Positions 2,209 to 28,247 of a DNA stretch of 28,898 nucleotides are shown piece by piece. Source of the stretch: an uncultured virus (IMG/VR IMGVR_UViG_2837229570_000001) (taxonomy: Duplodnaviria > Heunggongvirae > Uroviricota > Caudoviricetes); the IMG/VR virus record IMGVR_UViG_2837229570_000001, one strand, 5' to 3'. The translations under genes and the position numbers were made by a program. Every line of letters begins with the position of its first letter. Positions within the stretch are counted from its first letter, which is position 1. The notes under the pieces are model-generated. The model saw only the letters and a program-made list of their open reading frames with translations, was not told the DNA's origin and ran no database searches.

Positions 2209-2237
2209 ATTATAACACATTCCGCCGGGCTTTAAAA
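2209..2237 (-). promoter_or_regulatory. Extended -10 promoter of smpB, overlapping the immA stop codon
   Basis: TGT-TATAAT (-10 at 2209-2214); weak -35 region coincides with TAA at 2232-2234. Confidence 0.55.
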
Positions 2238-2690
2238 GGGGTTTTTGTCCCCGGGGAGGGGCGGCACCGTGCTCCGGCGGTACCGGGCCAGAGGGAGGGG
2301 GACCCCCATCCACCGCGCCACCTGCTCGTCCGACCACTCGGCGCACTCCCGCAGGTCGGCATCGTCATACAGGAGGTCCACTGCGAAGCGGTGGGCCTCG
2401 TTTTCATATTTGTTGGCCACCATGCAGGTGTTGCGGTCCATAAACAGGCGGTTGAGGCCCCGGTGGAGGAAGTGGTGCCCCAGCTCGTGGGCGCACACCA
2501 GGCGCTGCTGAGGCTCGTCCAGGCAGGCATTGACATAGACAATGGTGCGCCGCTTCACATACTGGTGCAGGCCCCGCATCTCCACCAGCGGGGCGCGGAT
2601 CACAATGAACCCAAGCTCCTCCGCAATGCGGAAGGGGTCCCGTGTGCCATGCTGCGCCGCCACTCTATTTGCGAGTGCCTTCGTGTCCAT
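2232..2690 (-). CDS. immA: ImmA/IrrE-family Zn metallopeptidase (anti-repressor)
   Basis: AHELGH HExxH motif, ENEAHRFA, GTRDPF N-terminus; directly downstream of an HTH repressor. Confidence 0.9.
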   Translation of the reverse strand: MDTKALANRVAAQHGTRDPFRIAEELGFIVIRAPLVEMRGLHQYVKRRTIVYVNACLDEPQQRLVCAHELGHHFLHRGLNRLFMDRNTCMVANKYENEAHRFAVDLLYDDADLRECAEWSDEQVARWMGVPLPLARYRRSTVPPLPGDKNPF

Positions 2691-3128
2691 TCAAGCCTCC
2701 TCTTTGGGCCCGCGGTACTTTTTGGGGGTATAGGTCTCCTTGTTTCTCAGACGGGCGGCCTCCAGGCCCAGCTTCATGGCTGCGGTGAGAGAGTCCCTGG
2801 CCTCCGGGGACATGGGCACCCCGTCGAACATCAGGTCCCCGCTGTTCTCCAAGTCCCCCATGATGCGCTCCACCTCCCGGGCCACGTCACGGCGCTCCCG
2901 CTCCGTCAGGGTGGAGCGGCCCCGCCCGGCGGGCAGGTCCTCCAGCACCTCATAGGGGCTGACGCCGAAATACTCTGAGAGCTTCCGCACCACCTCCGGC
3001 GAAGGCTCCTTGGCCTCGTTGGCCTTCCACTTGGACACCAGGGACTTGCTGATCCCGGCCTCCACGGCGGCCCGGGTGGGGACCACGCCCTTCCGGCGGC
3101 AGAGCTCCAGAAACCGATCATAAAACAC
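2691..3128 (-). CDS. ImmR/XRE-family HTH repressor
   Basis: HTH (TRAAVEAGISKSLVSKWK) and C-terminal LMFDG..NKETYTPKKYR; GTG at 3128 with GGGGTGA RBS preferred (ATG 3146 is an alternative). Confidence 0.88.
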   Translation of the reverse strand: MFYDRFLELCRRKGVVPTRAAVEAGISKSLVSKWKANEAKEPSPEVVRKLSEYFGVSPYEVLEDLPAGRGRSTLTERERRDVAREVERIMGDLENSGDLMFDGVPMSPEARDSLTAAMKLGLEAARLRNKETYTPKKYRGPKEEA

Positions 3129-3187
3129 AAAATCACCCCGTTCCATTTGTGCACCCCGACAAAGTTCCCAAAATTCATAAAAATGGG

Positions 3188-3216
3188 TAGACAAGTTGAA
3201 AACAATGAACTATTAT
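3188..3216 (+). promoter_or_regulatory. Rightward early promoter with an operator in its spacer
   Basis: TAGACA(3188-3193)-17 nt-TATTAT(3211-3216). Confidence 0.7.
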
Positions 3217-3336
3217 GAGGGCGGGAGGTTGAAAAACGAGAACTACAGTTGAATACTGGACACTAATGCATCCAGCATACCACATATGTTGCTGGTTTTC
3301 AACCAAAATCAAGGGAGAAGTTGAATTTTGTGCAAA
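3194..3336. promoter_or_regulatory. Five imperfect 18-bp operator-like sites (3194-3211, 3227-3244, 3247-3264, 3287-3304 reverse, 3319-3336)
   Basis: AGTTGAAAACAATGAACT, GGTTGAAAAACGAGAACT, AGTTGAATACTGGACACT, rc GGTTGAAAACCAGCAACA, AGTTGAATTTTGTGCAAA. Confidence 0.7.
3274..3302 (-). promoter_or_regulatory. Leftward repressor promoter
   Basis: TTGAAA-17 nt-TATGCT with TGn extension on the minus strand. Confidence 0.7.
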
Positions 3337-3375
3337 ACGATGAACGGATTTCCGGCTACAAGAGGAGGATACCAG

Positions 3376-3561
3376 ATGAAGGGTCCCATAAAACGGACTT
3401 TTGAACGGGCGGGCCAGATTCCGCCGCCCTGGAGCGACCCCCAGGACCAACGCCCCTGGGCCTGGTGCCGGCGGTGCCTGGGCGAGATCTACGCCCCCAC
3501 GGCGGACGGCGCGGCCCTGTGCCGCCAGTGCCGACGGGAGAAGCGGGGCAGAGGCGGGTGA
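3376..3561 (+). CDS. Small phage Zn-finger-like protein
   Basis: GAGGAGG RBS; DPQD..CRRCLGEIY..CRQC; GTGA overlap with next gene. Confidence 0.65.
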   Translation: MKGPIKRTFERAGQIPPPWSDPQDQRPWAWCRRCLGEIYAPTADGAALCRQCRREKRGRGG

Positions 3562-3845
3562 AGAACAGCTTTGTGCTCTATCACGACTGGGAGGAGCCGG
3601 TGAAGCTCCTCACCGACGCGCAGGCGGGGGCGCTGTTCAAGGCCATCTTCGCCTATGAGAAGCGGGGGGAGGAGCCCCCGGAGGACCCGGCGGTGCGGAT
3701 GGCGTTCCGGTTCATCCGGACGGCGCTGGACGAGAACCGGGTCAAGTACGAGGCCCGGGCGAGGAAGAACCGGGAGAACGGCCTGCTGGGCGGACGGCCC
3801 AGAAACCCAGTGGGTTCTTGGGAAAGCGGTAAAAGCGGATACTGA
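3558..3845 (+). pseudogene. Truncated phage replication initiator, N-terminal DUF6291-like domain only
   Basis: KNSFVLYHDW..LTDAQAGALFKAIFAY..NRENGLLGGRP; the low-complexity linker (KADTESASVSDSVS) lies in another frame and stops at 3885. Confidence 0.65.
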
Positions 3846-3961
3846 GTCTGCGTCTGTCTCTGACTCTGTATCTGCTCCTTTCTGAGGAAAGGAGGCGCGA
3901 GGACGTTTGGGCGGATTTGTGGAAAACCCGGTGGAAAACCGGGAGAGAGGAGGTGGGGATC

Positions 3962-4189
3962 GTGCGGGACCCCATGGGATTTCGGGGCGTGCGGCCGGTG
4001 GACCCGGACTGCTACGCCCAGCCGGGGCGGCGGCCCTGGCGGGAAGCGGAGAGACCGGCCAGGGCGGAGCGGGGCGGCGAGCCCCAGTGGAAGATCGACT
4101 ACTGCCTGGAGCGGTGCCCCCTGCCGGGGGAGAAGTGCCGGGGCAGAGGACTCTGCCCGGCGAGAGGGAGGAGCGGGAAGCATGAGTAA
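3962..4189 (+). CDS. Small Cys-rich hypothetical phage protein
   Basis: AGGAGG RBS before GTG; IDYCLERCPLPGEKC..C; overlaps the next start. Confidence 0.5.
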   Translation: MRDPMGFRGVRPVDPDCYAQPGRRPWREAERPARAERGGEPQWKIDYCLERCPLPGEKCRGRGLCPARGRSGKHE

Positions 4190-4589
4190 ACCGAGGTACG
4201 ACTGGTGGAGCTACGTAAAGGGAATGATCCGGCGCTATCCGGAGCTGCGGCGGCGGTACGGCGCGCTGCGGGAGGGGCGGCTGACGGCGGACTACTCCGG
4301 GATGCCCCGGGGCGGCGGAGACGGGCGGGCGGTGGAAGGCCTGGCCATCCGGGAGCTGCCCAGCACCAGCCAGCGGGAGTATGAGGCCGTGCGCCGGGCG
4401 GTGGAGACCACCGAGCACTACCGCAACGGGCAGGAGCGGCTGAAGGTGATCGAGCTGGTGCTGTGGAAAAAGACCCACAACCTCCAGGGCGCCGCCCTCC
4501 AGATCCCCTGTCATGTGGACACCGCCAAGGTCTGGCATGGGGATTTTATCCGCCTGGTGGCCAGCTATTACGGCCTGATGGATGAGTAA
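4182..4589 (+). CDS. RinA/ArpU-like late transcriptional activator
   Basis: MSKPRYDWWSYVKGMIRRYP N-terminus, C-terminal HTH-like region; last early gene before the packaging genes. Confidence 0.7.
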   Translation: MSKPRYDWWSYVKGMIRRYPELRRRYGALREGRLTADYSGMPRGGGDGRAVEGLAIRELPSTSQREYEAVRRAVETTEHYRNGQERLKVIELVLWKKTHNLQGAALQIPCHVDTAKVWHGDFIRLVASYYGLMDE

Positions 4590-4678
4590 GAAGCGCGGAG
4601 TGCCTGGGAACAGGCACAAAAAGGCCGCCCCGGGAGGGGCGGCAAAGGAAATGTATGGGGGAGAACAATGGGAGGCGG

Positions 4679-4852
4679 TCAGTTCTTGGTGCGTTTGGCG
4701 ACGCGGAAGAGCCAGATGCTGCCGATGATGCCCGCGATAGCGCCGAAGACCATCCAGGTCTCGGGAAGGGCCAGACCACAGGCCAGCGCTATTAGACTCA
4801 TAAATAACAAGGAAGAAGCTGTGTAATAAAAAAAAGCCTTGTTGCTTATCAA
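4679..4852 (-). CDS. Small two-TM membrane peptide, copy 1 (57 aa)
   Basis: TTG start after GGGAGTG; hydrophobic with basic tail RVAKRTKN; own promoter TTGACC-17-TATCAT. Confidence 0.7.
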   Translation of the reverse strand: MISNKAFFYYTASSLLFMSLIALACGLALPETWMVFGAIAGIIGSIWLFRVAKRTKN

Positions 4853-4930
4853 GAAGATCACTCCCATTCAACCTGATAATCCAATGATAACAGAATTTAA
4901 AAACGCGGTCAAGGAGAGGAGACAATACAG

Positions 4931-5017
4931 ATGGCGGAGGGTATCAACACGAGGGAACTGAACAAGGGGTCCGAGAGACGATAAAAGGGCTGAGGAAGGT
5001 CACGTTCAAGCTGACCC
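4931..5017 (+). pseudogene. Frameshifted 5' fragment of tape-measure-like gene A
   Basis: MAEGINTRELNKG / IKGLRKVTFKLT versus MAESIHIKELNKGIRETVKGLREVTIKLT. Confidence 0.75.
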
Positions 5018-5041
5018 TGCAAGGAGAACAACGGGAGGCGG

Positions 5042-5212
5042 TCAGTTCTTGGTGCGTTTGGCCACACGGAAGAGCCAAATGCTACAAGGAATGCCCGGAA
5101 TACTCGCAACGATCATCCAGGTCTCGGGAAGGGCCAGACCGCAGAGCAGCGCCAAAAGACTCATAAGCAATAAATTGGTAGCAATGATATAGAAAAATGC
5201 CTTGTTACTCAA
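5042..5212 (-). CDS. Small two-TM membrane peptide, copy 2 (56 aa; not in the ORF track)
   Basis: Hand translation MSNKAFFYIIATNLLLMSLLALLCGLALPETWMIVASIPGIPCSIWLFRVAKRTKN; GGAGGTG RBS; promoter TTGACT-17-TAACAT. Confidence 0.7.
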   Translation of the reverse strand: MSNKAFFYIIATNLLLMSLLALLCGLALPETWMIVASIPGIPCSIWLFRVAKRTKN

Positions 5213-5288
5213 GAAGGTCCACCTCCCCAGCAGGATAACACAATGTTACCAGAATTTAAAGATACAGTCAAGGAAAGGAGAAACACAG

Positions 5289-6935
5289 ATGGCGGAGAGC
5301 ATCCATATCAAAGAACTGAACAAGGGGATACGAGAGACGGTGAAAGGGTTACGGGAGGTCACGATTAAACTGACCCCGCTGGAGGAAGCGCTGCCGGAGG
5401 TCACCCAGGGCATCGGCAAGCTGGAGCACGGCGCGGAGGAGGCGGGCTCGACCCTGGCGGAGAGCGGGAAGCGATTCACCAAGCCGGAGGACGGCGGGGA
5501 GGCGGGGACCTCCAGGCTGGCGGGCGGCATATCAAAGGCGGCACTGGACAATCTGGTCAAATCAGGAATGTGGAGTACGATAGGCAGGACGACCAGCGCC
5601 GCGGCCGAGGCAGGGTTCTCCAGCCTGTTGGGCGACACGGCGGGGAGCATGGCGTCCCACATCGTGTCGGACGCGGGGACCGGGCTGATGTTCGGGCTGC
5701 TGAACGCCACGGCGGCGGGGGGCGGCATCGCGGCCAGCGCGGCCACAGCGGCGGGCGGCATCGCCGGCGCGATGGGGGGCCTGGGGAGCGTTCTGGGCGG
5801 CCCGGTCGGGGGGCTGGTGGTGGGCGCCCTGTTCGGCGTGGCGGAAGGGATCGTGGAGTCCTTCGAGAAGCAGGACCAGGCCTTCCAGGACTATGTAAAG
5901 AGCCAATACGACCGGGTGATGCAGGAGCAGCAGGCCATGCTGCAGCGGGGCACCACCCTGGCGGCGGCGGGAGACGAGGAGTACCAGGCGGCCATGCGCG
6001 GCCTGGAGGAGGCCCAGAACGAGCTGGAGAAGCTGATGGGTCAGGGCTTTATCGACACCCGCAAGGATGGAATCCAGGCGCAGAAGGAGTGGCTGGAGGA
6101 GCAGACCAAGCAGAAGGAAGAGGGGGAAACCGGGCTGGGGCTGGGGGACGCCTACGGGCTCATCGGCTCCTTCCAGGCCTCCCTGGAGAACGACAAGGAG
6201 CGGCTGGAGCGGGATGCTCTGAGCATCGTGATGGGAGATGGGGAAAAAATCAGCAGCTACCAGGACAGCGCCCAACGGGAGCGGCTGGAGGAGCTGCAGG
6301 CCCAGTACCAGGCGCTGGAGGAGCAGTACGGCGCGACCGACAGCGAGGAGATGCAGAGAAAGATCGGGGCAAAGATGGGGGCGCTGCTGGCGGAGGCCCA
6401 GATCATCGCCGCCAACGAGTACAACGCCTCCGAAGGGGCCCAGCTCATGCAGGAGTCCAACCTGGCGCTGGTACAGGGCATCCGGGACGACTCGGTGCTG
6501 CAAAAGGAGTATTACAACGCCGGGTACACGATGGGAGAGGAGTTCAGCCAGGGCATCCTGGCGGCCAGGATGGAGAACGCCTTCTCCCCGGTGGACTACG
6601 GCCTGGCCCCGGAAGAAGGGGGGGCCGGAATCGGCTCGGCAACATCGGAGCCGGAAAACAATGCGATCCCATCGGCATACAAGGTGAAGGCGGACAGCGG
6701 CATCCATGGGCGCTATGCCTACGGCCTGGACTATGTGCCTTACGACAACTTCCCGGCCCTGCTACACCAGGGCGAGCGGGTGCTGACGGCCTCCCAGGCA
6801 CGGTCCGCGGACCGGGGCGGCGGGGTAAACGTGACCTTCTCGGGACCGGTCACCGTCCGGGAGGAGGCGGACCTGGACCGGCTGGCGGCCAAGCTGGCCG
6901 AAAAGGTGGCCCGGGCGGCCCTGCTGCGGGGCTGA
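5289..6935 (+). CDS. Tape-measure-like protein A (548 aa), outside the tail operon
   Basis: AAAGGAG RBS; Gly/Ala hydrophobic zipper, long helical region, C-terminal AYGLDYVPYDNFPALLHQGERVLTA..VREEADLDRLA typical of tape-measure C-termini. Confidence 0.7.
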   Translation: MAESIHIKELNKGIRETVKGLREVTIKLTPLEEALPEVTQGIGKLEHGAEEAGSTLAESGKRFTKPEDGGEAGTSRLAGGISKAALDNLVKSGMWSTIGRTTSAAAEAGFSSLLGDTAGSMASHIVSDAGTGLMFGLLNATAAGGGIAASAATAAGGIAGAMGGLGSVLGGPVGGLVVGALFGVAEGIVESFEKQDQAFQDYVKSQYDRVMQEQQAMLQRGTTLAAAGDEEYQAAMRGLEEAQNELEKLMGQGFIDTRKDGIQAQKEWLEEQTKQKEEGETGLGLGDAYGLIGSFQASLENDKERLERDALSIVMGDGEKISSYQDSAQRERLEELQAQYQALEEQYGATDSEEMQRKIGAKMGALLAEAQIIAANEYNASEGAQLMQESNLALVQGIRDDSVLQKEYYNAGYTMGEEFSQGILAARMENAFSPVDYGLAPEEGGAGIGSATSEPENNAIPSAYKVKADSGIHGRYAYGLDYVPYDNFPALLHQGERVLTASQARSADRGGGVNVTFSGPVTVREEADLDRLAAKLAEKVARAALLRG

Positions 6936-6952
6936 ACGGGACCTTCCGTCCA

Positions 6953-7573
6953 TTACAGCGGAGGCAGCACAGTGAGCATGGCAAGCCCGCCGGTGACGAT
7001 ATAGGAGAAAGACGCGCTCTCCCCGTTGAAGAAATTCATGGTGCCGTCGGTAAAGGCGGCATTCGCAATATCAAGGGATTCGTCCAACGACGCGATTTCC
7101 TCACTGGAGGAAAAGCCGCCGGTGACGACCGCAAGGTAGCTGCCGAATACTTTGGCATCGCTCTCACTCAGTTGAGAAGAATCTCCAGTGAGGAATACCT
7201 GTGTAAGTTCGCCGGAATCCTTGGCCTCATACAGAATGCAGCTGGCGCCGGGACAGATGCTGTAAGAGTACGCCACCAAATCCCCGTTTTCGGCATCGGG
7301 CAGTTCAGATATGTCCGGATCATTTTCAAAGGCGTTGGGAAGATCGCTGGAGGAAAACGTATTGGACATGGCCTCGGCCATAGCGGAGCGGGAGAGGCCA
7401 AACGTGGCGCCGGTATAGGGAGTCACCTCGCCGGCAGGAGGAGCAGAGACCGCAACAACGGGAGACTGGCCGGGATCGCCCGTCGGAGCAGGCTGATCGG
7501 AAGAGGCAGAGCCGCAGGCGGCTGTGAGGGTAAGGCACAGGGACAGAGTCAGCAGGCAAGAGAGCTTTTTCAC
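6953..7573 (-). CDS. Acidic lipoprotein (moron-like)
   Basis: MKK-hydrophobic-LTAAC lipobox, Pro/Ser linker; AGGAGG RBS; lower GC than neighbours. Confidence 0.8.
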   Translation of the reverse strand: MKKLSCLLTLSLCLTLTAACGSASSDQPAPTGDPGQSPVVAVSAPPAGEVTPYTGATFGLSRSAMAEAMSNTFSSSDLPNAFENDPDISELPDAENGDLVAYSYSICPGASCILYEAKDSGELTQVFLTGDSSQLSESDAKVFGSYLAVVTGGFSSSEEIASLDESLDIANAAFTDGTMNFFNGESASFSYIVTGGLAMLTVLPPL

Positions 7574-7598
7574 TGTAAAATCCTCCTATTCATTGTTT

Positions 7599-7657
7599 GG
7601 ATTTGTGAATATTTACAAATCCCTTGCAAGTATAGCACAACTGTAATGGATCAGCAA
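7599..7657 (-). promoter_or_regulatory. Lipoprotein promoter with a downstream palindrome
   Basis: TTGCTG-17-TATACT (7657-7629) with TGn; GGATTTGTGAATATTTACAAATCC near-perfect palindrome at 7599-7622. Confidence 0.6.
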
Positions 7658-7789
7658 GAGCATCGTGACAGTGCGAAGCGCGGAGACGGCACCAAAAGGG
7701 GCCCCCGCAAAGCCGCAAGGCAAATCGGGGACCCACGAAAGGCAAAACGCCTTTCGTGGGAGAGCCGGAGGCCATCCCACCACCGGGGG

Positions 7790-7810
7790 GCCAAAAAACC
7801 GTGGTAGGAT
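7790..7810 (+). promoter_or_regulatory. Putative activator-dependent late promoter
   Basis: GCCAAAAAACCG-TGG-TAGGAT extended -10 with no consensus -35, just upstream of the terS RBS. Confidence 0.45.
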
Positions 7811-7833
7811 GACATAGCTGAAGCAAAGGAGGG

Positions 7834-8076
7834 ATGTCATTGGAGACGGAAGAGAGGATCGGCCCGGAGGGCTACACCCAGGCGGCGCTGGAGGCCCTGG
7901 CCGACATCGCCCTGGGACGGAAGTCCTACCCCGCCCGGGACAAGGACGGGCGGGAGGTCCCCTGCCAGCCCACGGTGGCCGAGCGGCTCAAGGCGCTGGA
8001 GCTGCTGAGCCGGTGGAGCGGGGAGGCCGGCACCGGAGCCCGCGCAGAACCGGCCAGGATCGTGGACGATGTGTGA
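7834..8076 (+). CDS. terS: Short terminase small subunit (oligomerisation and C-terminal parts only)
   Basis: ALADIALG..PTVAERLKALELL..RIVDDV; overlaps terL start; TTG at 7840 may be the real start. Confidence 0.7.
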   Translation: MSLETEERIGPEGYTQAALEALADIALGRKSYPARDKDGREVPCQPTVAERLKALELLSRWSGEAGTGARAEPARIVDDV

Positions 8077-9325
8077 GATCAGATGCTCCTCCCTCCTGGC
8101 CCCGGCCTTCCACTGCGTCCACCGGGATGTGAAGGCGGGGGGACACACCCACTACTGGCTCCCCGGCGGGCGGGGCTCCGGCAAGTCCTCCTTCGTGGGG
8201 GTGGAGATCCCCCTCTGCCTCATGCGGGACGCCCAAAAGGGCGTGATGAGCCACGCCGTGGCCCTGCGGCGCTACGGCGTGACCCTGCGGGAGTCGGTCT
8301 ACGCCCAGCTCCTGTGGGGGGTGCACGCCCTGGGGGCCGGACGGCTCTGGGAGGCGCGGCTCTCCCCCCTGTCCCTGTGCTACCGCCCCACCGGACAGCG
8401 CATCCTCTTCCGGGGCGCCGACGACCCCATGAAGCTCAAGTCCATCCGACCGGAGCGGGGCTACATCAAGTATGCCTGGTACGAGGAGGCCGACGAGTTC
8501 GAGGGGGAGGAGAAGGTCCGGGCCGTCAACCAGTCCCTGATGCGGGGCGGGGAGGACTTCGCCTTCTTCTACACCTTCAACCCGCCCCGCAGCGCCCGGA
8601 ACTGGTGCAACCAGTATGTGAGGGGGGAGCACCCCGGGACCCTGGTGCACCGGACCGACTACCGCACGGTGCCCAGGGCCTGGCTGGGAGAGCCCTTCCT
8701 GCTGGAGGCCGAGCACCTGCGCCTGGCCAATCCCCAGGCCTACGCCCGGGAATACCTGGGGGAGGTGACGGGCACCGGCGGCGAGGTGTTTTCCAACGTG
8801 ACGCTGCGGACCATCTCCGAGGAGGAGATCGGGCGGTTCGACCACATCCGCCGGGGGCTGGACTGGGGCTACGCCGCCGACCCCCTGGCCTACAACGTCT
8901 GCCACTACGACCCCGTCCGGCGGCGGCTCTACCTCTTCCGGGAGCTCCACCGGGCGGGGCTCACCAACCGCAGGACCGCCCTCCTCCTCCGGGAGGAGGG
9001 CGGGGAGGGGCGCATCGTCTGCGACTCCGCCGAGCCCAAGAGCATCGCCGAGCTGCGGGACTACGGCCTGCGGGCCGTGGGGGCCCGCAAGGGAGCGGGG
9101 TCCGTGGCCTTCGGAATACAATGGCTCCAGGACCTGGAGGAGATCGTCATCGACCCCGCCCGCTGCCCCGAGAGCGCCCGGGAGTTCACCGGCTACGAGC
9201 TGGAGCGGGACCGGGACGGCGGCTTCCGGGCCGGATTCCCCGACCGGGACAACCACCACATCGACGCCGTGCGCTACGCCTGCGAGGACGATATGGCGGG
9301 CCCGGCGCTGCATATCCTGAAGTGA
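8069..9325 (+). CDS. terL: Terminase large subunit, PBSX/SPP1 type
   Basis: Walker A GGRGSGKS, Walker B WYEEA, FNPP, nuclease motifs GLDWG, DSAEP, NHHIDAVRYA all intact. Confidence 0.95.
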   Translation: MCEIRCSSLLAPAFHCVHRDVKAGGHTHYWLPGGRGSGKSSFVGVEIPLCLMRDAQKGVMSHAVALRRYGVTLRESVYAQLLWGVHALGAGRLWEARLSPLSLCYRPTGQRILFRGADDPMKLKSIRPERGYIKYAWYEEADEFEGEEKVRAVNQSLMRGGEDFAFFYTFNPPRSARNWCNQYVRGEHPGTLVHRTDYRTVPRAWLGEPFLLEAEHLRLANPQAYAREYLGEVTGTGGEVFSNVTLRTISEEEIGRFDHIRRGLDWGYAADPLAYNVCHYDPVRRRLYLFRELHRAGLTNRRTALLLREEGGEGRIVCDSAEPKSIAELRDYGLRAVGARKGAGSVAFGIQWLQDLEEIVIDPARCPESAREFTGYELERDRDGGFRAGFPDRDNHHIDAVRYACEDDMAGPALHILK

Positions 9326-19367: not shown

Positions 19368-19380
19368 GACGCCGGGCCGG

Positions 19381-19461: not shown

Positions 19462-19484
19462 CTATCAAAAAATGAGGTGAGAGA

Positions 19485-21174: not shown

Positions 21175-21417
21175 ATGCTGGAACAGATCAAAAAAATCGC
21201 GCGGCAGAGCGACGAGTGCGCCGCGCCGGCCATGGTGCTCTACGGCACGGTGACCGGGCTGGACCCCCTGCGGGTGCGGGTGGACAACCGCTTCGAGCTG
21301 GGGGAGCGGGCCCTCACCCTGCTGCGGGGGACCCGTGAGAGCCTGGAAGCGGGGGACGGCCTGGCCCTCCTCCGCAACCGGGGCGGACAGGAATTCCTGG
21401 TACTGGGGAGGCTGTGA
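21175..21417 (+). CDS. XkdR/DUF2577-like spike protein (short)
   Basis: GTVTGLDPLRVRVD..LEAGD..LLRNRGGQEFLVL. Confidence 0.78.
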   Translation: MLEQIKKIARQSDECAAPAMVLYGTVTGLDPLRVRVDNRFELGERALTLLRGTRESLEAGDGLALLRNRGGQEFLVLGRL

Positions 21418-21845
21418 GCGTGCTGCCGACACAGGGAGGAATCCTCTTGCAGGGGGGCACACCCCTGGTGCCCGCCGCGCAGCGGCCCAGCCGGACCTAC
21501 CGGGCGGACTTCGCCGCCGGGCGCATCGACGGCTTTACCGACGGGCGGGAGGCCATGGAGCAGGCCATCTATCAGATCCTGCACACCGAGCGCTTCGCCT
21601 GGCCCATCTACTCCTGGAATTACGGCGCGGAGCTGGGCCGGCTCACCGGCCGCAGCGTCCGGGTGGCCCAGGGCGAGCTGCCCCGCCTCCTGCGGGAGGC
21701 CCTCACCCAGGACGCCCGCATCACCGGCGTCCGGGACGTTACCGTGACCCAGTCCGGGAAACGGGAGGCGCTGGTGCACTTTACCGCCGAGACCGTGTTC
21801 GGCGACGTGGATGCGGCGGCCCCCCTCCGGCTGGGAACGGTCTGA
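21414..21845 (+). CDS. xkdS: XkdS/DUF2634-like baseplate protein
   Basis: EAMEQAIYQILHTERF..IYSWNYGAEL..EALTQDARI..TVFGD. Confidence 0.88.
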   Translation: MSVLPTQGGILLQGGTPLVPAAQRPSRTYRADFAAGRIDGFTDGREAMEQAIYQILHTERFAWPIYSWNYGAELGRLTGRSVRVAQGELPRLLREALTQDARITGVRDVTVTQSGKREALVHFTAETVFGDVDAAAPLRLGTV

Positions 21846-21884
21846 GGGAGCGCCGCGGAGATCACGCCCGGGGAATGTGGGGAA

Positions 21885-21913
21885 TGGACAGGACGGGCCG
21901 GGTCTGGTATCAT
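21885..21913 (+). promoter_or_regulatory. Cassette promoter 3
   Basis: TGGACA-17-TATCAT with TGn. Confidence 0.7.
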
Positions 21914-21952
21914 GGAGGGGACCCGAGGGAAATATGGAAAGGAGAGGATACC

Positions 21953-22171
21953 ATGTTTGGAGAAAAGAAGGAAAAAAGGTTTGTAAGGACGGTGCATGAG
22001 ATAGCAGATAAGGGGTCTGTCGGAGGGATCTTCGTGTATGCGGACACCGAGACCGGAGTGCAGTACATACATATCGTGGGAGATGGCAGAGGGGGCCTGA
22101 CGGTGCTGGTGGACCGGGAGGGCAAGCCCCTGCTGCGGGAGGACCTGATCAAGAAGCCATCCGAACCATAA
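21953..22171 (+). CDS. DUF6440-like small protein, copy 3 (72 aa)
   Basis: MFGEKKEKRF..YADTETGVQYI..GGLTVLVDREGKPL. Confidence 0.8.
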   Translation: MFGEKKEKRFVRTVHEIADKGSVGGIFVYADTETGVQYIHIVGDGRGGLTVLVDREGKPLLREDLIKKPSEP

Positions 22172-22183
22172 CAGAGGACAAGA

Positions 22184-22221
22184 GCAAAAAGGCAGCCGCC
22201 GGAAGGAGGCTGCCTTTTTGC
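22184..22221 (+). terminator. Intrinsic terminator
   Basis: GCAAAAAGGCAGCC..GGCTGCCTTTTTGC. Confidence 0.8.
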
Positions 22222-22321
22222 AGGAAAGAAAGCATGAGGTGAAAAAATGAACGCGGTCCCCCTCCGGCTGGGAACGGTCTGAGGGAGCGCCGCGGAGATC
22301 ACGCCCGGGGAATGTGGGGAA

Positions 22322-22350
22322 TGGACAGGACGGGTCGGGTTTGGTATCAT
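22322..22350 (+). promoter_or_regulatory. Cassette promoter 4
   Basis: TGGACA-17-TATCAT with TGn. Confidence 0.7.
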
Positions 22351-22389
22351 GGAGGGGACCCAAGGGAAATATGGAAAGGAGACGATACC

Positions 22390-22599
22390 ATGTTTGGAGA
22401 AAAGAAGGAAAACAGGTTTGTGAAACTCTCAATAGAAGGGGTAAAAGATGTGGCGTGCATGCAAGTAGTGGTGGATACATGGACTGGTATTCAATATCTG
22501 TTTGCAGAGTCATTTGGAAATGCGGGCGGCCTGACGGCACTTTTGGATGAGGATGGGAAGCCCCTGATCTGTGAGGAGTATCGGCGCAAAAAGGAGTAA
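22390..22599 (+). CDS. DUF6440-like small protein, copy 4 (69 aa)
   Basis: MFGEKKENRF..VVDTWTGIQYL..GGLTALLDEDGKPL. Confidence 0.8.
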   Translation: MFGEKKENRFVKLSIEGVKDVACMQVVVDTWTGIQYLFAESFGNAGGLTALLDEDGKPLICEEYRRKKE

Positions 22600-22621
22600 G
22601 CCGGAGAAAGGAGAGCGGACC

Positions 22622-22827
22622 ATGTTTGGAGAAAAAAGGAGTCAAGGTTTGTAACAATACTAAGCGAGTCGGCAAAGGGGGGTGGGATAGCCCGAGTTAT
22701 GGTAGATACGGAAACAGGAATACAATACTTATTTGTATATGCCTTAGAAGCAGGTGGTCTCACGATACTTGCGGATGAGGACGGGAAGCCCCCCATTAAC
22801 GAGGAGTATAGACGTAAAAAAGACTGA
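22622..22827 (+). pseudogene. DUF6440-like copy 5, frameshifted by one base in an A6 run
   Basis: ATGTTTGGAGAAAAAAGG stops after 10 codons; -1 frame gives KESRFVTILSES..MVDTETGIQYL..GGLTILADEDGKP..RKKD*; span 206 nt. Confidence 0.8.
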
Positions 22828-22833
22828 ACAATT

Positions 22834-22868
22834 AAAAAGCAACCGCCTTCCGAGGCGGTTGCTTTTTT
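22834..22868 (+). terminator. Intrinsic terminator
   Basis: AAAAAGCAACCGCCT..AGGCGGTTGCTTTTTT. Confidence 0.85.
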
Positions 22869-22895
22869 ACTGGAAAAAATGAGGTGAAAGAGAAT

Positions 22896-24296
22896 ATGAA
22901 CGCAGCGGAAACACTGACGCAGTATGAGCGGCAGCTTGCGGTGCTGGACCGGATGGAGCGGATCCTGGGGCGAATGACGGCGGCGGCGGACCAGATGGCC
23001 GGGGCCGTCCAGAGGGCGGCGGACCGGATGGGGGAGCTGCTGGCCTCCACCCAGAAGACGGCGGCGCAGTCGGTGAACCTGAAGGCGCCCTTTGACGGCG
23101 CGGCGCAGTCCATAGCAGGGGCCATGGTAAAGGGATTGGACCAATTTGAAAACAACCTAACCCCCCAGGGCCTGGTCCTCTCCCTGGCCGTCAACCTGGG
23201 CTGGAAGCTCTTCGGCGACGACATCATGAGCGTTCTCAATCCGGCCATGACGGTGCTGGAGTCCTTCGCGGGGATGGTACACAGCACCCTGGGGGCGCTG
23301 GCCCCCTTCTTCACGCCGGTGGTGTGGGCAGTGGAGCTGCTGGCCCAGGGCATCGACTGGATGGCGGCAAAAATGAATACGCTGATGCCCATTATTCTGG
23401 GTCTGGCGACGGCCATGGCCATTTTCCACAAGGCGACCATTGCCAGCGCGATGGCAACAAAAATCCATGCGGCGGGCACGGTTCTGCACACGGTGGTTAC
23501 CAAGGCCCATACGGTGGCCACCAATGGGTTGAAACTGGCCCAGGCGGCCCTCGACATGGTGCTCAGCACATCCCCTCTGGGGCTGATTGCCCGGCTGGCG
23601 GGCGTCGCGGTGGGAATATTCGCGGCGTGGACCATGCGGGTGGGAGGACTGAAGAACGCCATCGGTATTTTGTTCAAAGGCATTATCGGCGGCATCAACT
23701 GGGTGCTGGAGCTGCTGAACAAGATACCGGGGGTGAATATCCCCATGATCGCCAGCCTAGAGATCGAAAAGGGACCGGCGGCCCAGGCGGAGGCGGAAGC
23801 GACCACGACGGCGGCTTTGGGGGCGGCGGAGAGCCCGGTGTTCCCGACACCGGAGGACCCCTATGCCGCTGTCATTCCGCCGGACCTGGCGAACAAGAAC
23901 GCCCCCCTGGACTACGGCGCGATGCTGGCGGAGCAATCCCCCCTCTCGTACGGCATGGACAACTACGTCACAGCGAGGTGGGGAGAGGACGCCGCGACCG
24001 GGGCCTTTTCCAACGGGTACCAGACCCTGGCGGACTCGCTGAAGCTGGTGGAGACCGTGGAGCGGGTCCAGGCGGTGGAGCTGCTGGAGAGCGAGGTGAG
24101 CCTGTCGGAGGAGGACAGGGAGGCGCTGCTGGGCGCCATCACACAGCGCCCGGTGTCCAGGGTCCTCAACCTCTCCCCCACCGTGCACCTCACCGCCTAT
24201 GTGCGCAGCGAGCCGGACCTCTATCAGCTCAAGAACATGATCGAGCAGGTGCTGGAGGAGGAGATCTGCGCCTGCGCGGAGGGGGAGCACCTGTGA
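22896..24296 (+). CDS. Tape measure protein C (466 aa), paralog of B, inserted between xkdS and baseplate J
   Basis: Shares AADRMG, NLK.PFD, GW.LFG.DI, TVLESFAG, PTV.L.A.V, LEEEI..AEG with B. Confidence 0.82.
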   Translation: MNAAETLTQYERQLAVLDRMERILGRMTAAADQMAGAVQRAADRMGELLASTQKTAAQSVNLKAPFDGAAQSIAGAMVKGLDQFENNLTPQGLVLSLAVNLGWKLFGDDIMSVLNPAMTVLESFAGMVHSTLGALAPFFTPVVWAVELLAQGIDWMAAKMNTLMPIILGLATAMAIFHKATIASAMATKIHAAGTVLHTVVTKAHTVATNGLKLAQAALDMVLSTSPLGLIARLAGVAVGIFAAWTMRVGGLKNAIGILFKGIIGGINWVLELLNKIPGVNIPMIASLEIEKGPAAQAEAEATTTAALGAAESPVFPTPEDPYAAVIPPDLANKNAPLDYGAMLAEQSPLSYGMDNYVTARWGEDAATGAFSNGYQTLADSLKLVETVERVQAVELLESEVSLSEEDREALLGAITQRPVSRVLNLSPTVHLTAYVRSEPDLYQLKNMIEQVLEEEICACAEGEHL

Positions 24297-24314
24297 GCAT
24301 TTCCATTGGGAAGG

Positions 24315-24345
24315 AAGCGGCATCCCGCAGGGGGGCTGCTTTTTT
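24315..24345 (+). terminator. Probable intrinsic terminator
   Basis: Imperfect GC stem followed by a T-run. Confidence 0.55.
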
Positions 24346-24384
24346 CATATCTAAAAACAGACAGGAAAGGAGAAAAGAACAAGT

Positions 24385-25464
24385 ATGACGGACGAGCACA
24401 GCTATGAAGCGCTGATGGCCCGGTGCCTGGGGCGGGTGTCCGCAGAGGTGGACAAGCGGGAGGGCTCCATCCTTTACGACGCGCTGGCCCCGGCCTGTGC
24501 CGAGCTGGCGGTGTTGTACACCGAGCTGGAGACCATGCTGGACCGGGCCTGGCCCGACACGGCCGCCGGGGCGGACCTGGACAAGAAGGCCGCCGAGCGC
24601 AGCCTCATCCGGGCCCCGGCCTCCCCCGCCGTGCGGGAGGGCCGCTTCACCGGCGCGGACGGGGGGGCCTTCGACGTGCCCATAGGCACGCGCTTCTCCG
24701 GCGGAGCGGTGAACTTCACCGTGACGGAGCGGCGGGAGGCCGGCGTCTTCCGCCTCACCGCGGAGACCCCGGGCAGCGTCGGGAACACCTGGTTCGGGAC
24801 CCTGTTCCCCATCGACTATGTGGAGGGCCTGGCGGGGGCGGAGCTGGGGGAGGTGCTGGTCCCCGGCGACGACGCCGAGGACGACGAGAGTCTCCGGGCA
24901 CGCTACTTCGGCTCCTTTGAGAGCCAGGCCTTCGGCGGCAACCGGGCCGACTACCGGGAGAAGGTCCTCTCCCTGCCCGGCGTGGGAGGGGTAAAGATCT
25001 TCCGCACGCCGGAGGGGGGCGGCACGGTGGGCCTCACACTGGTGGACAGCCTGTGGGGGGTGCCCTCCGACGACCTGGTGGCGGCGGTACAGGCCGCCAT
25101 CGACCCCGTGTCCGGCCAGGGGGACGGGGCGGGCCTGGCCCCCATCGGCCACACGGTGACGGTGCGCCCCGCCGTGGGAAAGACCATCGACGTCGCCCTC
25201 ACCCTGACCCTGGAGGGGAGCCTGACCTGGGAGGCCGTGCGCCCCGACGCCGAGGCCGCCCTCCGGGCCTACTTCGCCGAGCTGGTCCAGGGCTGGGCGG
25301 ACGCCTCCGGCCTCACCGTGCGCCTGAGCCAGGTGGAGACCCGGATGCTGGACATCCCCGGCGTGCTGGATGTGCAGGGGACCCGGCTCAACGGCGGGTT
25401 GGCCAATGTGACACTGGAGGAGGAGGAGATCCCGGTGCTGGGGGTGATGAGCCATGGCGCTTGA
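24385..25464 (+). CDS. xkdT: Baseplate J-like wedge protein (XkdT)
   Basis: DKREGSILYDALAP, EDDESLRARY, GGNRADY, GLAPIGHTVTV. Confidence 0.93.
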   Translation: MTDEHSYEALMARCLGRVSAEVDKREGSILYDALAPACAELAVLYTELETMLDRAWPDTAAGADLDKKAAERSLIRAPASPAVREGRFTGADGGAFDVPIGTRFSGGAVNFTVTERREAGVFRLTAETPGSVGNTWFGTLFPIDYVEGLAGAELGEVLVPGDDAEDDESLRARYFGSFESQAFGGNRADYREKVLSLPGVGGVKIFRTPEGGGTVGLTLVDSLWGVPSDDLVAAVQAAIDPVSGQGDGAGLAPIGHTVTVRPAVGKTIDVALTLTLEGSLTWEAVRPDAEAALRAYFAELVQGWADASGLTVRLSQVETRMLDIPGVLDVQGTRLNGGLANVTLEEEEIPVLGVMSHGA

Positions 25465-25999
25465 GTCCTATTGGCCGGAGTACCTGCGGGAGCTCCGGGA
25501 GTTCCAGGCGCTGGCCGGGGCGGAGGAGCCTGAGCTCACCGCGGCGGGGGCCGCGCTGCGCCGCGCGCCGGACGACTTCTACACCGCCACCCTCACCGAC
25601 GCCGGCTGCGCCCGGTGGGAGCGCCTGCTGGGGCTCCCGGTGGTCCACGGCGGAGACCTGGCCCAGCGCCGCTTCCGCATCATGACCCGGATGAACGAGC
25701 AGCGGCCCTTCACCATGGCGCGGCTGGGGGAGATGCTGCGGGGCCTGTGCGGCGAGGAGGGATTCACTCTGGCGCTGGACGGGGCGGACTTCCTGCTGAC
25801 GGTGCGCCTGGCCCTCACCGCCCGGCAGATGCTCTCCGACACGGCCGCCCTGCTGGACCGGGTGGTCCCGGTGAACCTGACGGTGGACCTGTCCCTGCGG
25901 TACAACCAGCATCAGACGCTGCTGGGCCGTACCCACGCCGCTCTGGCGGCGTATACCCACGATCAACTGAGAAATGAGGTGCTTGCAAATGGCGGCTGA
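25454..25999 (+). CDS. xkdU: XkdU/DUF2313-like baseplate protein
   Basis: YWPEYLRELREF..RWERLLGL..RRFRI..PFT..VVPVNL..YNQH. Confidence 0.88.
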   Translation: MALESYWPEYLRELREFQALAGAEEPELTAAGAALRRAPDDFYTATLTDAGCARWERLLGLPVVHGGDLAQRRFRIMTRMNEQRPFTMARLGEMLRGLCGEEGFTLALDGADFLLTVRLALTARQMLSDTAALLDRVVPVNLTVDLSLRYNQHQTLLGRTHAALAAYTHDQLRNEVLANGG

Positions 26000-26573
26000 A
26001 ACAGCCAATTACGGGCTGAAAAAGCCCAGCGCAGAGGATTTTTACAACATTGAGGACTTCAACTGGAACGCCGACGTCATCGACGCTGAGCTGGCGAAGC
26101 GGGCGGAGCTGGGGGAGGACGGGAGAGTGCCCGCCGCGCAGCTCCCGGCCATGGATTTTGACCCGGCGGGCAGCGCCGCGGCGGTGCAGACGGCCCTCTC
26201 CGGCCACACCGGGGACAACGTCCGCCACCTCACCGCGGCGGAGCGGACGGCCTGGAACGCCAAGGCCGCCGGGGATCACACCCACACGGCGGCCCAAGTG
26301 GGGGCGGTGCCCACGACCCGGAAGGTGAACGGCAAGGCGCTCAGTGCGGACGTCACCCTGGCAGCGGCCGACGTGGGGGCGGCGGCCGCCGGCCACAGCC
26401 ACGCCGCCTCCGGCGTCACGGCGGGGACCCTGGCCGGAAAGGTGAACGCCAACGCCTCCGCCGCGGGCACCCTGACCGCCGCCCAGGTCCGGGACATCAG
26501 TGTGGGGACGGCGGAGCTCACCCCGGGGACCTCCGCTCTCGTCACCGGAAGCCTCTACTTTGTCTATGAGTGA
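25989..26573 (+). CDS. Short tail fibre protein
   Basis: TANYGLKKP..FNWNADVID; HxH motifs (DHTH, GHSH); VPTTRKVNGKALSADVTL. Confidence 0.85.
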   Translation: MAAETANYGLKKPSAEDFYNIEDFNWNADVIDAELAKRAELGEDGRVPAAQLPAMDFDPAGSAAAVQTALSGHTGDNVRHLTAAERTAWNAKAAGDHTHTAAQVGAVPTTRKVNGKALSADVTLAAADVGAAAAGHSHAASGVTAGTLAGKVNANASAAGTLTAAQVRDISVGTAELTPGTSALVTGSLYFVYE

Positions 26574-26584
26574 GGTGAGACCGG

Positions 26585-27697
26585 ATGGCGAAAAAAGGAT
26601 ATGTCGGTGTGGGCGGCGTGGCCAGGAAGCTCAAAAAGGGATATGTGGGCGTGGGCGGCGTGGCCCGCAGGCTCAAAAAGGCGTACATCGGCGTGGGCGG
26701 CGTGGCCCGGCCCTGCTGGAGCGGGGGAGAGTTGTCCTACTACGGGACGGCTGCGACCTTGACAAATTCCATAGCGTATCATGCCGGAACATCAGTTGGG
26801 AACTACGCTTTATTTGGAGGCGGTTATTACGCCCCGTCCGCTGCAACCTATTCTACAGTGAATGCCTACAGCAATGCTTTGACGAGAAGCACGCCAACTG
26901 CGCTAAGTACAGCGAGACGCTATCTCGCAGCGGCATCGGTCGGAAATTATGCCCTGTTTGGAGGCGGCCGGCCTGACAGCTCCGCGGTCGACGCATACAG
27001 CACCTCTCTGACCCACAGTGTGCCGACGGCCCTGAGTCAGGCAAGAGGGCAGTTGAACGCGGCATCGGTTGGGAACTATGCGTTGTTTGGCGGTGGACTT
27101 TATTCCAATTCCGGCTACTCGAACGATGTGGACGCTTATAATGCATCGCTTACGAGAAGCCTTCCAAGCGCTCTGGGCGAGGCCAGATACAATCTCGCAG
27201 CGGCGTCGGTCGGGAACTACGCCCTGTTCGCCGGGGGTGTGGCATATGACGACGGTTCATACAGCAGCAGTTATTTGGACGCCTATAATGCCTCGCTGAC
27301 AAAAACCAGCAAAAGCCTTGGCATGATTACCAGCCGCGGTTCATCGGCATCCGTAGGCAGCTACGCATTATTTGCGTATGCGCCTGGAGCTAAAGTTCAA
27401 TCCGTCAATACATCGCTCACGACTGCTGATATTGCGGACCTAAGCCGAGGAAGAAGGAATCCAGCAGGCGGCTCGGTGGGGGACTATGCCCTTTTCGCCG
27501 GAGGTTACGAGTCCGGATATCTGGGTGCCGTAGACGTTTATGACGCATCGCTTACCAAAACGGTGACAACTGATCTGAGTAAGGCGCGAGAAAGCGCAGA
27601 GTCCGCCAGAGCCGGAGATTTTCTCCTGTTTGGCGGCGGCATGATCAGCACCGGAAATTCCGCAGCGACCAACGTCGTAGACGCCTACACAATTTAA
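26585..27697 (+). CDS. Putative receptor-binding protein: triple GYVGVGGVAR repeat plus seven Kelch-like repeats
   Basis: Seven ~44-aa units of the form SVGNYALFGGG..VDAY..SLT; GC drops after ~26730. Confidence 0.75.
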   Translation: MAKKGYVGVGGVARKLKKGYVGVGGVARRLKKAYIGVGGVARPCWSGGELSYYGTAATLTNSIAYHAGTSVGNYALFGGGYYAPSAATYSTVNAYSNALTRSTPTALSTARRYLAAASVGNYALFGGGRPDSSAVDAYSTSLTHSVPTALSQARGQLNAASVGNYALFGGGLYSNSGYSNDVDAYNASLTRSLPSALGEARYNLAAASVGNYALFAGGVAYDDGSYSSSYLDAYNASLTKTSKSLGMITSRGSSASVGSYALFAYAPGAKVQSVNTSLTTADIADLSRGRRNPAGGSVGDYALFAGGYESGYLGAVDVYDASLTKTVTTDLSKARESAESARAGDFLLFGGGMISTGNSAATNVVDAYTI

Positions 27698-27724
27698 ATC
27701 ATTTATTTAAGGAGGAATAGAAAC

Positions 27725-28105
27725 ATGAGCACAAGGTATCAGCTTTGGGACAAGGCCAGTCAGGTCATCACGCCCATTGGGGAGGTGCTGACGGCGGGGC
27801 AGTGGATGGAGCGGTATCCCGCGGCGGCGGCGATCCCCTATGTGCTGGCTGCCGGGGAGGTGAACGGGGCGTTCTGCACGCCCCTTGCCCAGATGAAGCA
27901 GATCTGCGCCCAGCAGGGGTGCGACTTCTCCGCCTGCGGGACCGACCAGGAGGCGCTGGATGCCATCGAAGCCTTCGAGGACGCGCAGAACGCCCCCGGC
28001 GAGGCGGTCTCCAACGAGGAGCTGACGGCCACGAGCCTGGCGTCCATCGCCGCCAGCCTGGAATATCAGAACATGCTCACCCTGGACGACGCGGAGGTGG
28101 TATAA
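27725..28105 (+). CDS. Hypothetical fibre-associated protein
   Basis: AAGGAGG RBS; between RBP and xkdX. Confidence 0.65.
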   Translation: MSTRYQLWDKASQVITPIGEVLTAGQWMERYPAAAAIPYVLAAGEVNGAFCTPLAQMKQICAQQGCDFSACGTDQEALDAIEAFEDAQNAPGEAVSNEELTATSLASIAASLEYQNMLTLDDAEVV

Positions 28106-28106
28106 C

Positions 28107-28247
28107 ATGAGCTTTGAACGGATCCAGTATTATTACGAGGCGGGCCTGTGGAGCAAGCCGATGGTGAAGATGGCGGTGCGCAAGGGCGTCATCACCAGGG
28201 AGCAGTACCGGGACATCACCGGCGAGGACTACAGGGCGCAGACGTGA
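28107..28247 (+). CDS. xkdX: XkdX-family small protein (46 aa; not in the ORF track)
   Basis: MSFERIQYYYEAGLWSKPMVKMAVRKGVITREQYRDITGEDY; GGAGGTGG RBS. Confidence 0.85.
   Translation: MSFERIQYYYEAGLWSKPMVKMAVRKGVITREQYRDITGEDYRAQT

Follow-up and report, generated by a model that had tools for sequence, protein, structure and literature searches.

The stretch of DNA analysed here, a virus record of 28,898 nucleotides (nt) in IMG/VR (IMGVR_UViG_2837229570_000001) that we refer to as the window, corresponds to G000:C1:509630-538527, where G000 is a single-contig genome of 3.22 Mb. Profile matches to Pfam, PHROGs and NCBIfam delimit a phage-derived cluster at window positions 2232-28247 (about 26 kb), hereafter called the element, which carries a repressor-protease switch together with head and contractile-tail genes and is directly adjoined by host genes at both ends. 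The features are given below with window coordinates and strand (aa, amino acids; ORF, open reading frame; TMP, tape measure protein).

516-871, minus strand: tmRNA gene, host context (Rfam RF00023, 160.6 bits)
1060-1626, minus strand: host cyclophilin-type peptidyl-prolyl isomerase (PPIase) gene
1661-2125, minus strand: host smpB (Pfam SmpB, E 5e-60), single copy in G000
2232-2690, minus strand: ImmA-type M78 metalloprotease, anti-repressor (PF06114, E 4e-16; phrog_87)
2691-3194, minus strand: helix-turn-helix (HTH) repressor of the Xre/ImmR type (PF01381, phrog_8)
3465-3845, plus strand: stand-alone DUF6291 protein (PF19808, positions 1-79 of 79 covered)
4182-4589, plus strand: putative late-gene activator (phrog_248, E 2.3e-5, weak)
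4679-5212, minus strand: two paralogous small hydrophobic proteins of 62 and 56 aa (from a 194-nt direct repeat and the translations)
5202-6935, plus strand: p577, a tape-measure-like protein of 577 aa, upstream of the terminase
6953-7573, minus strand: lipoprotein-like moron (translation begins MKKLSCLLTLSLCLTLTAAC)
7834-8076, plus strand: 80-aa ORF that overlaps the start of terL and is, solely from its position, a candidate small terminase
8069-9325, plus strand: large terminase terL, Terminase_3 (PF04466, PF17288)
9425-10771, plus strand: SPP1-type portal (PF05133, E 2e-58)
10768-11241, plus strand: scaffold of 157 aa (phrog_194)
11467-12564, plus strand: P22-type major capsid protein (PF11651, phrog_283)
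12611-14384, plus strand: head-tail connector, adaptor, tail terminator and a small ORF (PF05135, phrog_615, PF20765, phrog_966; connectors 12611-14193)
14385-15719 and 15739-16197, plus strand: tail sheath and tube (PF04984, PF17482, PF09393)
16573-16980, plus strand: XkdN-type tail assembly chaperone (PF08890, E 1e-29)
17267-17485 and 17612-17836, plus strand: two DUF6440 genes in an array at 17197-17881 (PF20037)
17883-19367, plus strand: TMP1, a tape measure of 494 aa in the canonical slot (phrog_1068, E 6e-47, profile positions 282-705 of 706)
19541-21845, plus strand: XkdP (LysM), XkdQ/YqbQ, XkdR and XkdS (PF01476, PF24032, PF10844, PF10934)
21953-22171, 22390-22599 and 22622-22827 (the last frameshifted), plus strand: three DUF6440 units in an array at 21885-22852 (PF20037)
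22884-24296, plus strand: TMP2, a TMP-like protein between XkdS and baseplate J (C-terminal part of phrog_1068)
24385-27697, plus strand: baseplate J (24385-25464), XkdU and two fibre proteins (PF04865, PF10076, fibre PHROGs)
27725-28247, plus strand: XkdW-position protein and XkdX (28107-28247) (TIGR01669)
28319-28355, no strand: perfect 17-bp hairpin at the right boundary, between the element and a convergent SLH-domain host gene (-49 kcal/mol, z -6.7)

The family assignments confirm the original prediction of a full set of head and contractile-tail genes, which the Pfam, PHROGs and NCBIfam matches place in PBSX order (PF04466, PF05133, PF11651, PF04984, PF09393, PF08890, PF01476, PF24032, PF10844, PF10934, PF04865, PF10076 and TIGR01669). 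The ImmA/ImmR switch proposed at the same time is equally evident from the PF06114 and PF01381 matches on adjacent genes, and the HELGH motif of ImmA is intact. With regard to mobility, no integrase, helicase, primase, recombinase, holin or endolysin family was found among the cluster ORFs (2232-28247) in Pfam, PHROGs or NCBIfam, and the left and right junctions share no common word of at least 11 nt that could represent an attachment (att) repeat; the integrase, the att repeats and the helicase, primase and recombination genes are thus missing, as had been predicted. Nor does a lysis cassette follow XkdX, where the hairpin and then the convergent SLH-domain host gene are situated, and endolysin homologues in G000 are confined to other prophages.

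At the left junction, 106 nt separate the smpB start from the ImmA stop. The genes past the SLH-domain gene on the right are, in order, PadR, Fe-ADH, GNAT, PanE, BlaI/BlaR1, MreB, ComF and RecD2; this flank is host DNA and contains no integrase. The GC content of the element is 63.8% (66-68% in the structural modules) compared with a G000 mean of 59.5%, and only 6.8% of the 5-kb windows of G000 reach 65%, so that its earlier description as host-like high GC is inexact. Since the flanking host genes are about equally rich in GC at third codon positions, base composition should be regarded as uninformative.

Two early genes turned out differently from what had been proposed. The DUF6291 protein had been read as the stub of a replication initiator; it is a whole protein and not a truncated one, since the Pfam domain is fully covered and the Atlas clusters of this family measure 95-113 aa, and none of the tools used assigned it a replication role. 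The proposed late activator retains its phrog_248 match, but the assignment is weak, resting on this single PHROG with no match in Pfam or NCBIfam. Relatives of ImmA in GTDB were found in Oscillibacter only (62-63% identity), and it is only suggested that the host is a member of the Oscillospiraceae.

Selection on the element genes was estimated by counting each variant site once, relative to G000, and is expressed as the ratio of nonsynonymous to synonymous polymorphism (pN/pS), with a binomial p against neutrality. Between two and seven sequences were compared per head gene, and two for the tail half, and it should be kept in mind that these are not independent and that the counts, given below, are small.

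Regulators: 15 synonymous, 7 nonsynonymous, ratio 0.15
Head genes: 32 synonymous, 20 nonsynonymous, ratio 0.22, p 6.5e-8
Connector, sheath, tube and XkdN: 18 synonymous, 14 nonsynonymous, ratio 0.26, p 1.4e-4
Sheath alone: 11 synonymous, 3 nonsynonymous, ratio 0.09
TMP1: 9 synonymous, 5 nonsynonymous, ratio 0.17
Fibres: 29 synonymous, 27 nonsynonymous, ratio 0.32
Host PPIase and smpB: 19 synonymous, 19 nonsynonymous, ratio 0.30
p577: 33 synonymous, 44 nonsynonymous, ratio 0.43
Baseplate genes: 17 synonymous, 28 nonsynonymous, ratio 0.59, p 0.064
TMP2: 13 synonymous, 33 nonsynonymous, ratio 0.86

Judged by these ratios, the regulators, the head genes, the sheath and tube genes and TMP1 are under purifying selection, which for the structural genes, the head genes and sheath among them, is the result that the original prediction had proposed to look for. 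Among single genes, the synonymous and nonsynonymous counts were 4 and 2 for ImmA (eight sequences), 6 and 4 for the HTH repressor, 5 and 1 for the putative activator, 12 and 5 for the portal, 5 and 3 for the lipoprotein-like gene and 17 and 20 for the fibre gene at 26585-27697. No frame-breaking gap was found in the head, sheath or tube genes of any compared sequence. Gaps not divisible by three did occur in p577 (two sequences), TMP2 (one), the host PPIase gene (seven) and ImmA, the latter in one contig with a titled coverage of 2.7. Synonymous divergence is of the same order in the element (0.005-0.03) and in the adjacent host genes (0.01-0.05), which fits common descent of the element and its flanks. 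Neutral DNA would at such divergence be expected to show stops or frameshifts in about 20 kb of coding sequence, and the head, sheath and tube genes contain neither.

Scanning metagenomes with ImmA identified ten contigs encoding a 98.7-100% identical ImmA. All nine that extend past this gene have the same smpB-ImmA junction, the tenth ending within ImmA. Of the words sampled from window 1600-9600, half or more are contained in each of 18 runs from 11 studies, four of these runs being labelled isolates of the organism. Window 8899-28898 is matched with almost no differences by contigs of four runs, namely X1 (possibly the source itself), two pig-gut metagenomes from separate studies and an isolate run that carries no flag as a possible source, and the right junction is bridged by one metagenome contig (26237-28517). 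The mean contig depth in X1 was 204-237 for the element and 217 for the flank, a comparison of little weight in an uninduced culture.

Outside this species the picture is different. The original prediction had proposed examining conservation next to smpB across the genus. A search with the sheath in 14 congeneric species representatives gave identities of 43%, 38% and 36% in three and weak matches of 22-29% in six more, and no orthologous element was found in these 14. smpB was found in 11 of them, and none of the seven congener neighbourhoods inspected (G002, G003, G005, G007, G011, G013 and G014) has element genes upstream of smpB; distant tail clusters lie on the side of the tmRNA gene in G002 and G011. 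The genes adjoining smpB match G000 at 2.55 Mb in G003, G005 and G013 and at 1.74 Mb in G014. Since the smpB neighbours vary by species, the site is a synteny breakpoint. Fe-ADH homologues in the congeners are 42-54% identical, which is not informative on synteny of the right flank. A recombinase near smpB in G011 was considered as the mark of a prophage and ruled out, as it lies among host genes with no prophage there. The other synteny breakpoint in G000, at 2.556 Mb, was likewise dismissed as the place of a missing half of the element, since it contains a pyrophosphatase gene, glycan genes and a conjugative element and no phage part. This conjugative element (L029, G000 2,560,107-2,571,732), with a coupling protein, a TrbL/VirB6-like protein, PrgI and NlpC/P60, adjoins the gene block that neighbours smpB in three congeners. 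The proposal of a host-maintained element at one locus thus finds support within the species, in the nine of nine smpB junctions and the purifying selection, but none in the genus. As no ortholog was found in the congeners or at their smpB sites, any domestication must be young and of species level.

The tmRNA side of the locus is variable. All six contigs that reach it diverge from G000, their homology stopping at window 509-516, so the sequence there differs between strains. Only one of the six, L145, matches G000 elsewhere: its tmRNA gene adjoins sequence that G000 has at 372,574-380,584, about 130 kb away. In G000 a large serine recombinase of 538 aa with Resolvase, Recombinase and Zn-ribbon domains is encoded on the plus strand at window -1079 to 537 (L001:421-2037); its ORF ends 21 nt into the 3' end of the tmRNA gene and closes a strain-specific island. 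This protein was ruled out as the integrase of the element, because the tmRNA, PPIase and smpB genes intervene and it has no match in the six other-strain contigs past the tmRNA. Between the tmRNA and PPIase genes (window 880-1039) there is a 44-nt repeat with a spacing of 116 nt, of which contig L146 has extra tandem copies, so that its copy number differs among strains.

A complete relative was reached through a terL search of IMG/VR and follow-up searches. This contig, G041 (IMG/VR 3300010266_000003), measures 40,271 bp, has direct terminal repeats of 119 bp and is rated complete. It represents a temperate myovirus with its late genes in the same order as the element, and the identities between the two are 79% for terL, 76% for the portal, 84% for the capsid protein, 87% for the sheath, 73% for the tube and 66% for XkdN; the best capsid match among cultured phages is 43%. 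G041 alone has a large serine integrase, a Sak4-type annealing protein, a helicase, a 752-aa primase, RusA, a methyltransferase, a 172-aa terS, a gp7/Mu-F-type minor head protein, an extra fibre and an amidase endolysin. Its scaffold has 229 aa, compared with 157 aa in the element, and it has a single TMP of 646 aa where the element has three TMP-like genes. In contrast, it lacks ImmA, p577, TMP2 and the DUF6440 genes, all of which the element has. Neither the terS nor the activator of G041 matches the window. The 80-aa ORF at the terL start had no match in Pfam (E up to 1), PHROGs, NCBIfam or 50,697 phage records, and its only relatives among 5.8 billion proteins are near-identical copies. 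In the element the scaffold directly follows the portal, with no gp7-type gene between them. This gene is present in all seven other related loci checked (L034-L038, L047 and L080) and missing from the G000-type contigs L032 and L033. The original prediction did not mention the moron arrays, the presence of three TMP-like genes or the lack of lysis genes and of a gp7-type head protein.

The TMP-like genes of the element are p577, TMP1 and TMP2. The ORF of p577 had been taken for a terminase, a call that must be abandoned: its C-terminus shows a match to CD1366, the tape measure of diffocin (8v3w_B, E 1.3e-11), and homologues with 33-39% identity fill the TMP slot in five phage contigs (L128, L131, L132, L135 and L136), so that the protein is tape-measure-like. 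The 3' end of p577 has 82-85% DNA identity to sequence in three other G000 prophages. TMP1 and TMP2 are 35% identical to each other, and the position of TMP2 is empty in G041. Strain L112 has a fourth TMP-like gene of 544 aa, with a C-terminus almost identical to that of TMP1.

The five DUF6440 units, of about 70 aa each, are arranged in arrays just upstream of TMP1 or TMP2. They all share a repeated ribosome-binding site, and four of the five have promoter-like sites (TGGACA-17-TATAAT or TATCAT, for instance at 17197 and 17542), the only such sites in 20 kb. Bidirectional terminator-like hairpins with A- and T-tracts follow three of the DUF6440 genes (z -4.8 to -6.8), two of them in the first array at 17500 and 17851 (z -5.2 and -4.8) and one in the second at 22188 (z -6.8); a fourth follows TMP1 at 19431, so that TMP1 is bracketed by such hairpins. 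The two cassettes have a GC content of 54% and 59%. A stretch of 169 nt is doubled in G000 (21816-21984 and 22253-22421, 96% identity) and present in one copy in L112. Another duplication, a 194-nt direct repeat (window 4660-5216, copies 78% identical and 363 bp apart), accounts for the two small hydrophobic proteins, one in each copy. Both proteins end with WLFRVAKRTKN and have no family match, and they could have a holin-like, toxin-like or exclusion function. This repeat varies in copy number between strains and is rearranged in L033 and L142-L149. The lipoprotein-like ORF has no match in Pfam, PHROGs or NCBIfam. The DUF6440 genes, the lipoprotein gene and the small hydrophobic-protein genes look like morons expressed during lysogeny.

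Some further features of the structural region may be mentioned. The XkdQ/YqbQ ORF runs from 19978, and its true start is probably later. The fibre protein at 26585-27697 contains three N-terminal 14-aa repeats (KKGYVGVGGVARKL) and about seven further repeats with SVGNYALFGGG, which give a faint Kelch match; these repeats suggest a receptor-binding domain of the beta-propeller type. Repeats containing a GTTGGCCGGAGGCCAAC hairpin are located in intergenic sequence between structural genes, at window 11206-11359, 12985-13153 and 16224-16479. They occur elsewhere in G000 (near 75,367; 297,947; 2,018,638; 2,019,725; 2,462,814; 3,191,023 and 261,112) and also between scaffold and capsid in the phage G041, and metagenome contigs often end at them.

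We favour, with about evenly balanced confidence, the reading that the element is an immobilised defective myovirus prophage of the PBSX type, about 26 kb in size, located directly upstream of smpB in the sampled strains of a gut Firmicute and kept intact by selection. As far as its gene content tells, it appears unable to propagate, and a function like that of a gene transfer agent (GTA) we can only infer. If particles are produced, DNA damage would lead ImmA to remove the repressor, upon which the late genes would be expressed and heads and tails built. Because the element can neither excise nor replicate, the terminase would start in situ on the chromosome, and heads sized for about 40 kb would fill with the right part of the element and adjacent host DNA, in a manner either PBSX-like or lateral-transduction-like. 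Nothing in the capsid protein points to a small head, as it shares 84% identity with its counterpart in a 40.3-kb phage. For release, the element would depend on the lysis genes of co-resident prophages. G000 has three other contractile-tail prophages (at about 1.030-1.044, 1.138-1.153 and 2.007-2.021 Mb) with endolysin-like genes alongside, and these could be a source of lysis in trans. We consider it quite unlikely, though worth stating, that the element goes beyond this and is a host-kept contractile-tailed viriform which, upon SOS-type induction, packages and exports chromosomal DNA from a start in situ beside smpB and possibly transfers itself and its flanks to other hosts by recombination, with contig L147 (see below) as a trace of such transfer and the exchangeable TMP/DUF6440 cassettes as a variable module for entry or immunity.

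Several observations weigh against the immobilised, selected particle that we favour. The element lacks lysis genes and a recognisable small terminase, strong terminator-like hairpins break up its tail operon, one DUF6440 unit (22622-22827) is frameshifted, constraint is weak in the baseplate genes and near-neutral in TMP2, and its GC content is above the host mean, without amelioration. Neither an orthologous element nor element genes upstream of smpB were found in the congeners inspected, and all comparison sequences were retrieved via the element, so that strains free of it are invisible. Furthermore, purifying selection on defective prophages is reportedly a general pattern, described, it is said, by Bobay and co-workers in 2014, and it does not prove particle formation.

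Many of these points would suit a silent cryptic prophage that is kept for genes expressed in lysogeny, namely those for the lipoprotein, the DUF6440 morons, the small membrane proteins and the repressor with its immunity, its structural genes being slowly decaying passengers that form no particles. Such a prophage could do without lysis genes, a recognisable terS and a gp7-type gene, could tolerate terminators within the tail operon and relaxation of the baseplate genes (0.59), TMP2 (0.86) and a DUF6440 copy, and would be expected to have morons with promoter-like sites of their own. Yet the head genes (0.22, p 6.5e-8), the sheath gene and TMP1 are constrained like the flanking host genes and show no frame-breaking change, which is unexpected of passengers at a synonymous divergence of 0.01-0.03, and we therefore hold this explanation to be possible but rather doubtful. 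A true GTA, packaging random chromosomal fragments shorter than its own cluster with no preference for its own DNA, would explain the absence of integrase and replication genes, the shortened scaffold, the missing gp7-type gene and a sole terS candidate of 80 aa with no detectable DNA-binding family. In the available portions of Borodovich et al. 2026 (PMC12946183), a terS without a DNA-binding domain is described, and GTA-like packaging is reported for gut Oscillospiraceae with no locus identified. The capsid protein so close to that of a 40.3-kb phage, the retained and constrained phage-type ImmA/HTH switch in place of host regulators and the lack of conservation beyond one species make a true GTA improbable.

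The element might also be a copy, crippled in the recent past, of a temperate phage lineage that is still active, its constraint reflecting the phage's own recent life and gene flow, and its integrase and lysis genes having been lost by one deletion after xkdX. The 79-87% identity of structural genes to those of a complete phage is in line with this, and so is the right end. Homology to contig L113 and to the G000 prophage at 1.149 Mb stops at window 28232, in the last xkdX codons, beyond which L113 has a gene for a fibre-like protein of 427 aa and the beginning of a gene of an endolysin family (phrog_18955); the fibre N-terminus is shared by the three other G000 prophages, which are 86-92% identical to L113 there. 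However, the 528-bp XkdW-XkdX module is 97.5% identical to the G000 prophage at 1,149,221-1,149,748 and is as such a substrate for prophage recombination and assembly chimeras. From about 28171 onward the allele in L113 is that of the other prophage, and the contig is therefore perhaps a recombinant or an assembly chimera across this shared module. L112, from another sample and 97% identical, has the G000-type end through 28343. The truncated end is common to G000, L112 and one pig-gut run, so the loss predates strain divergence, and the genes are nevertheless still intact. The second contig that bears on this explanation is L147, a 6-kb contig with the same ImmA at 98.7% identity beside a foreign smpB (L147:1-2200, against window 1700-2900), whose identity to G000 is complete over the first 88 codons and 58% over the remainder. 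The tmRNA gene directly follows smpB there, without a PPIase gene, and is followed by a Gut-1 RNA; DNA identity to G000 is about 99% rightward of window 1860 and 60-67% leftward. L147 could reflect an att site inside smpB, transfer of the locus to another host or a chimeric assembly, and it is a single contig. With the short early region free of replication genes in all seven contigs that cover it, a recently crippled phage appears unlikely.

On the reading that we favour, namely an immobile prophage with selected particle genes, the element is a testable candidate for a host-kept particle that packages DNA or kills. Four runs labelled isolates, a fixed locus, a complete set of constrained particle genes and the apparent inability to excise, replicate or lyse the cell by itself make it a cultivable test case. 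Any particles formed must either contain host DNA or serve to kill, and either outcome, if true, would bring strict anaerobes of the gut into the range of PBSX-type biology. Should none form, the element would be a clean case of selection keeping structural genes intact in an immobile prophage.

Among known systems, PBSX of Bacillus subtilis has an Xre-type repressor, an XkdA/ImmA-type protease and a fixed chromosomal place, with no integrase or replication module; it also has an xhlA/xhlB/xlyA-type lysis cassette, an Xpf-type sigma factor and a small head that packages about 13 kb of host DNA, and it kills non-producer strains. The element has the same repressor-protease switch and the same late order (terminase, portal, scaffold, P22-type capsid, XkdK-type sheath, XkdM-type tube, XkdN, TMP, XkdP/Q/R/S/T/U, fibre, XkdW and XkdX), and it is likewise without integrase or replication module at a fixed place. 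It differs from PBSX in lacking the xhlA/xhlB/xlyA-type lysis cassette, in that no Xpf-type sigma factor was recognised in it, and in its three TMP-like genes and DUF6440 moron arrays.

According to the available portions of PMC12946183, GTA-like DNA packaging occurs commonly among Ruminococcaceae and Oscillospiraceae of the gut, and the paper gives PBSX and FpGTA as the sole examples from Gram-positive bacteria; a locus is named for Faecalibacterium and, in those portions and supplements aside, none for Oscillospiraceae. FpGTA is described there as a podovirus-like system with two loci (10.5 kb and 5.5 kb) and 8.4-8.9 kb of packaged DNA, and as near-ubiquitous across its genus. By that description, the element, which is known from its genes, resembles FpGTA in being a phage-derived, non-replicating and head-bearing element of a Gram-positive gut anaerobe, and differs from it as one 26-kb locus with a contractile tail in one species. 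It also differs from GTAs in keeping a phage-type switch instead of host control. Compared with a functional temperate phage, it is without integrase, att sites, replication module and lysis cassette. With R-type tailocins such as diffocin (PDB 8v3w) it shares the contractile sheath, tube and baseplate, but whereas these tailocins are without terminase, portal and capsid genes, the element keeps all of them, intact and constrained.

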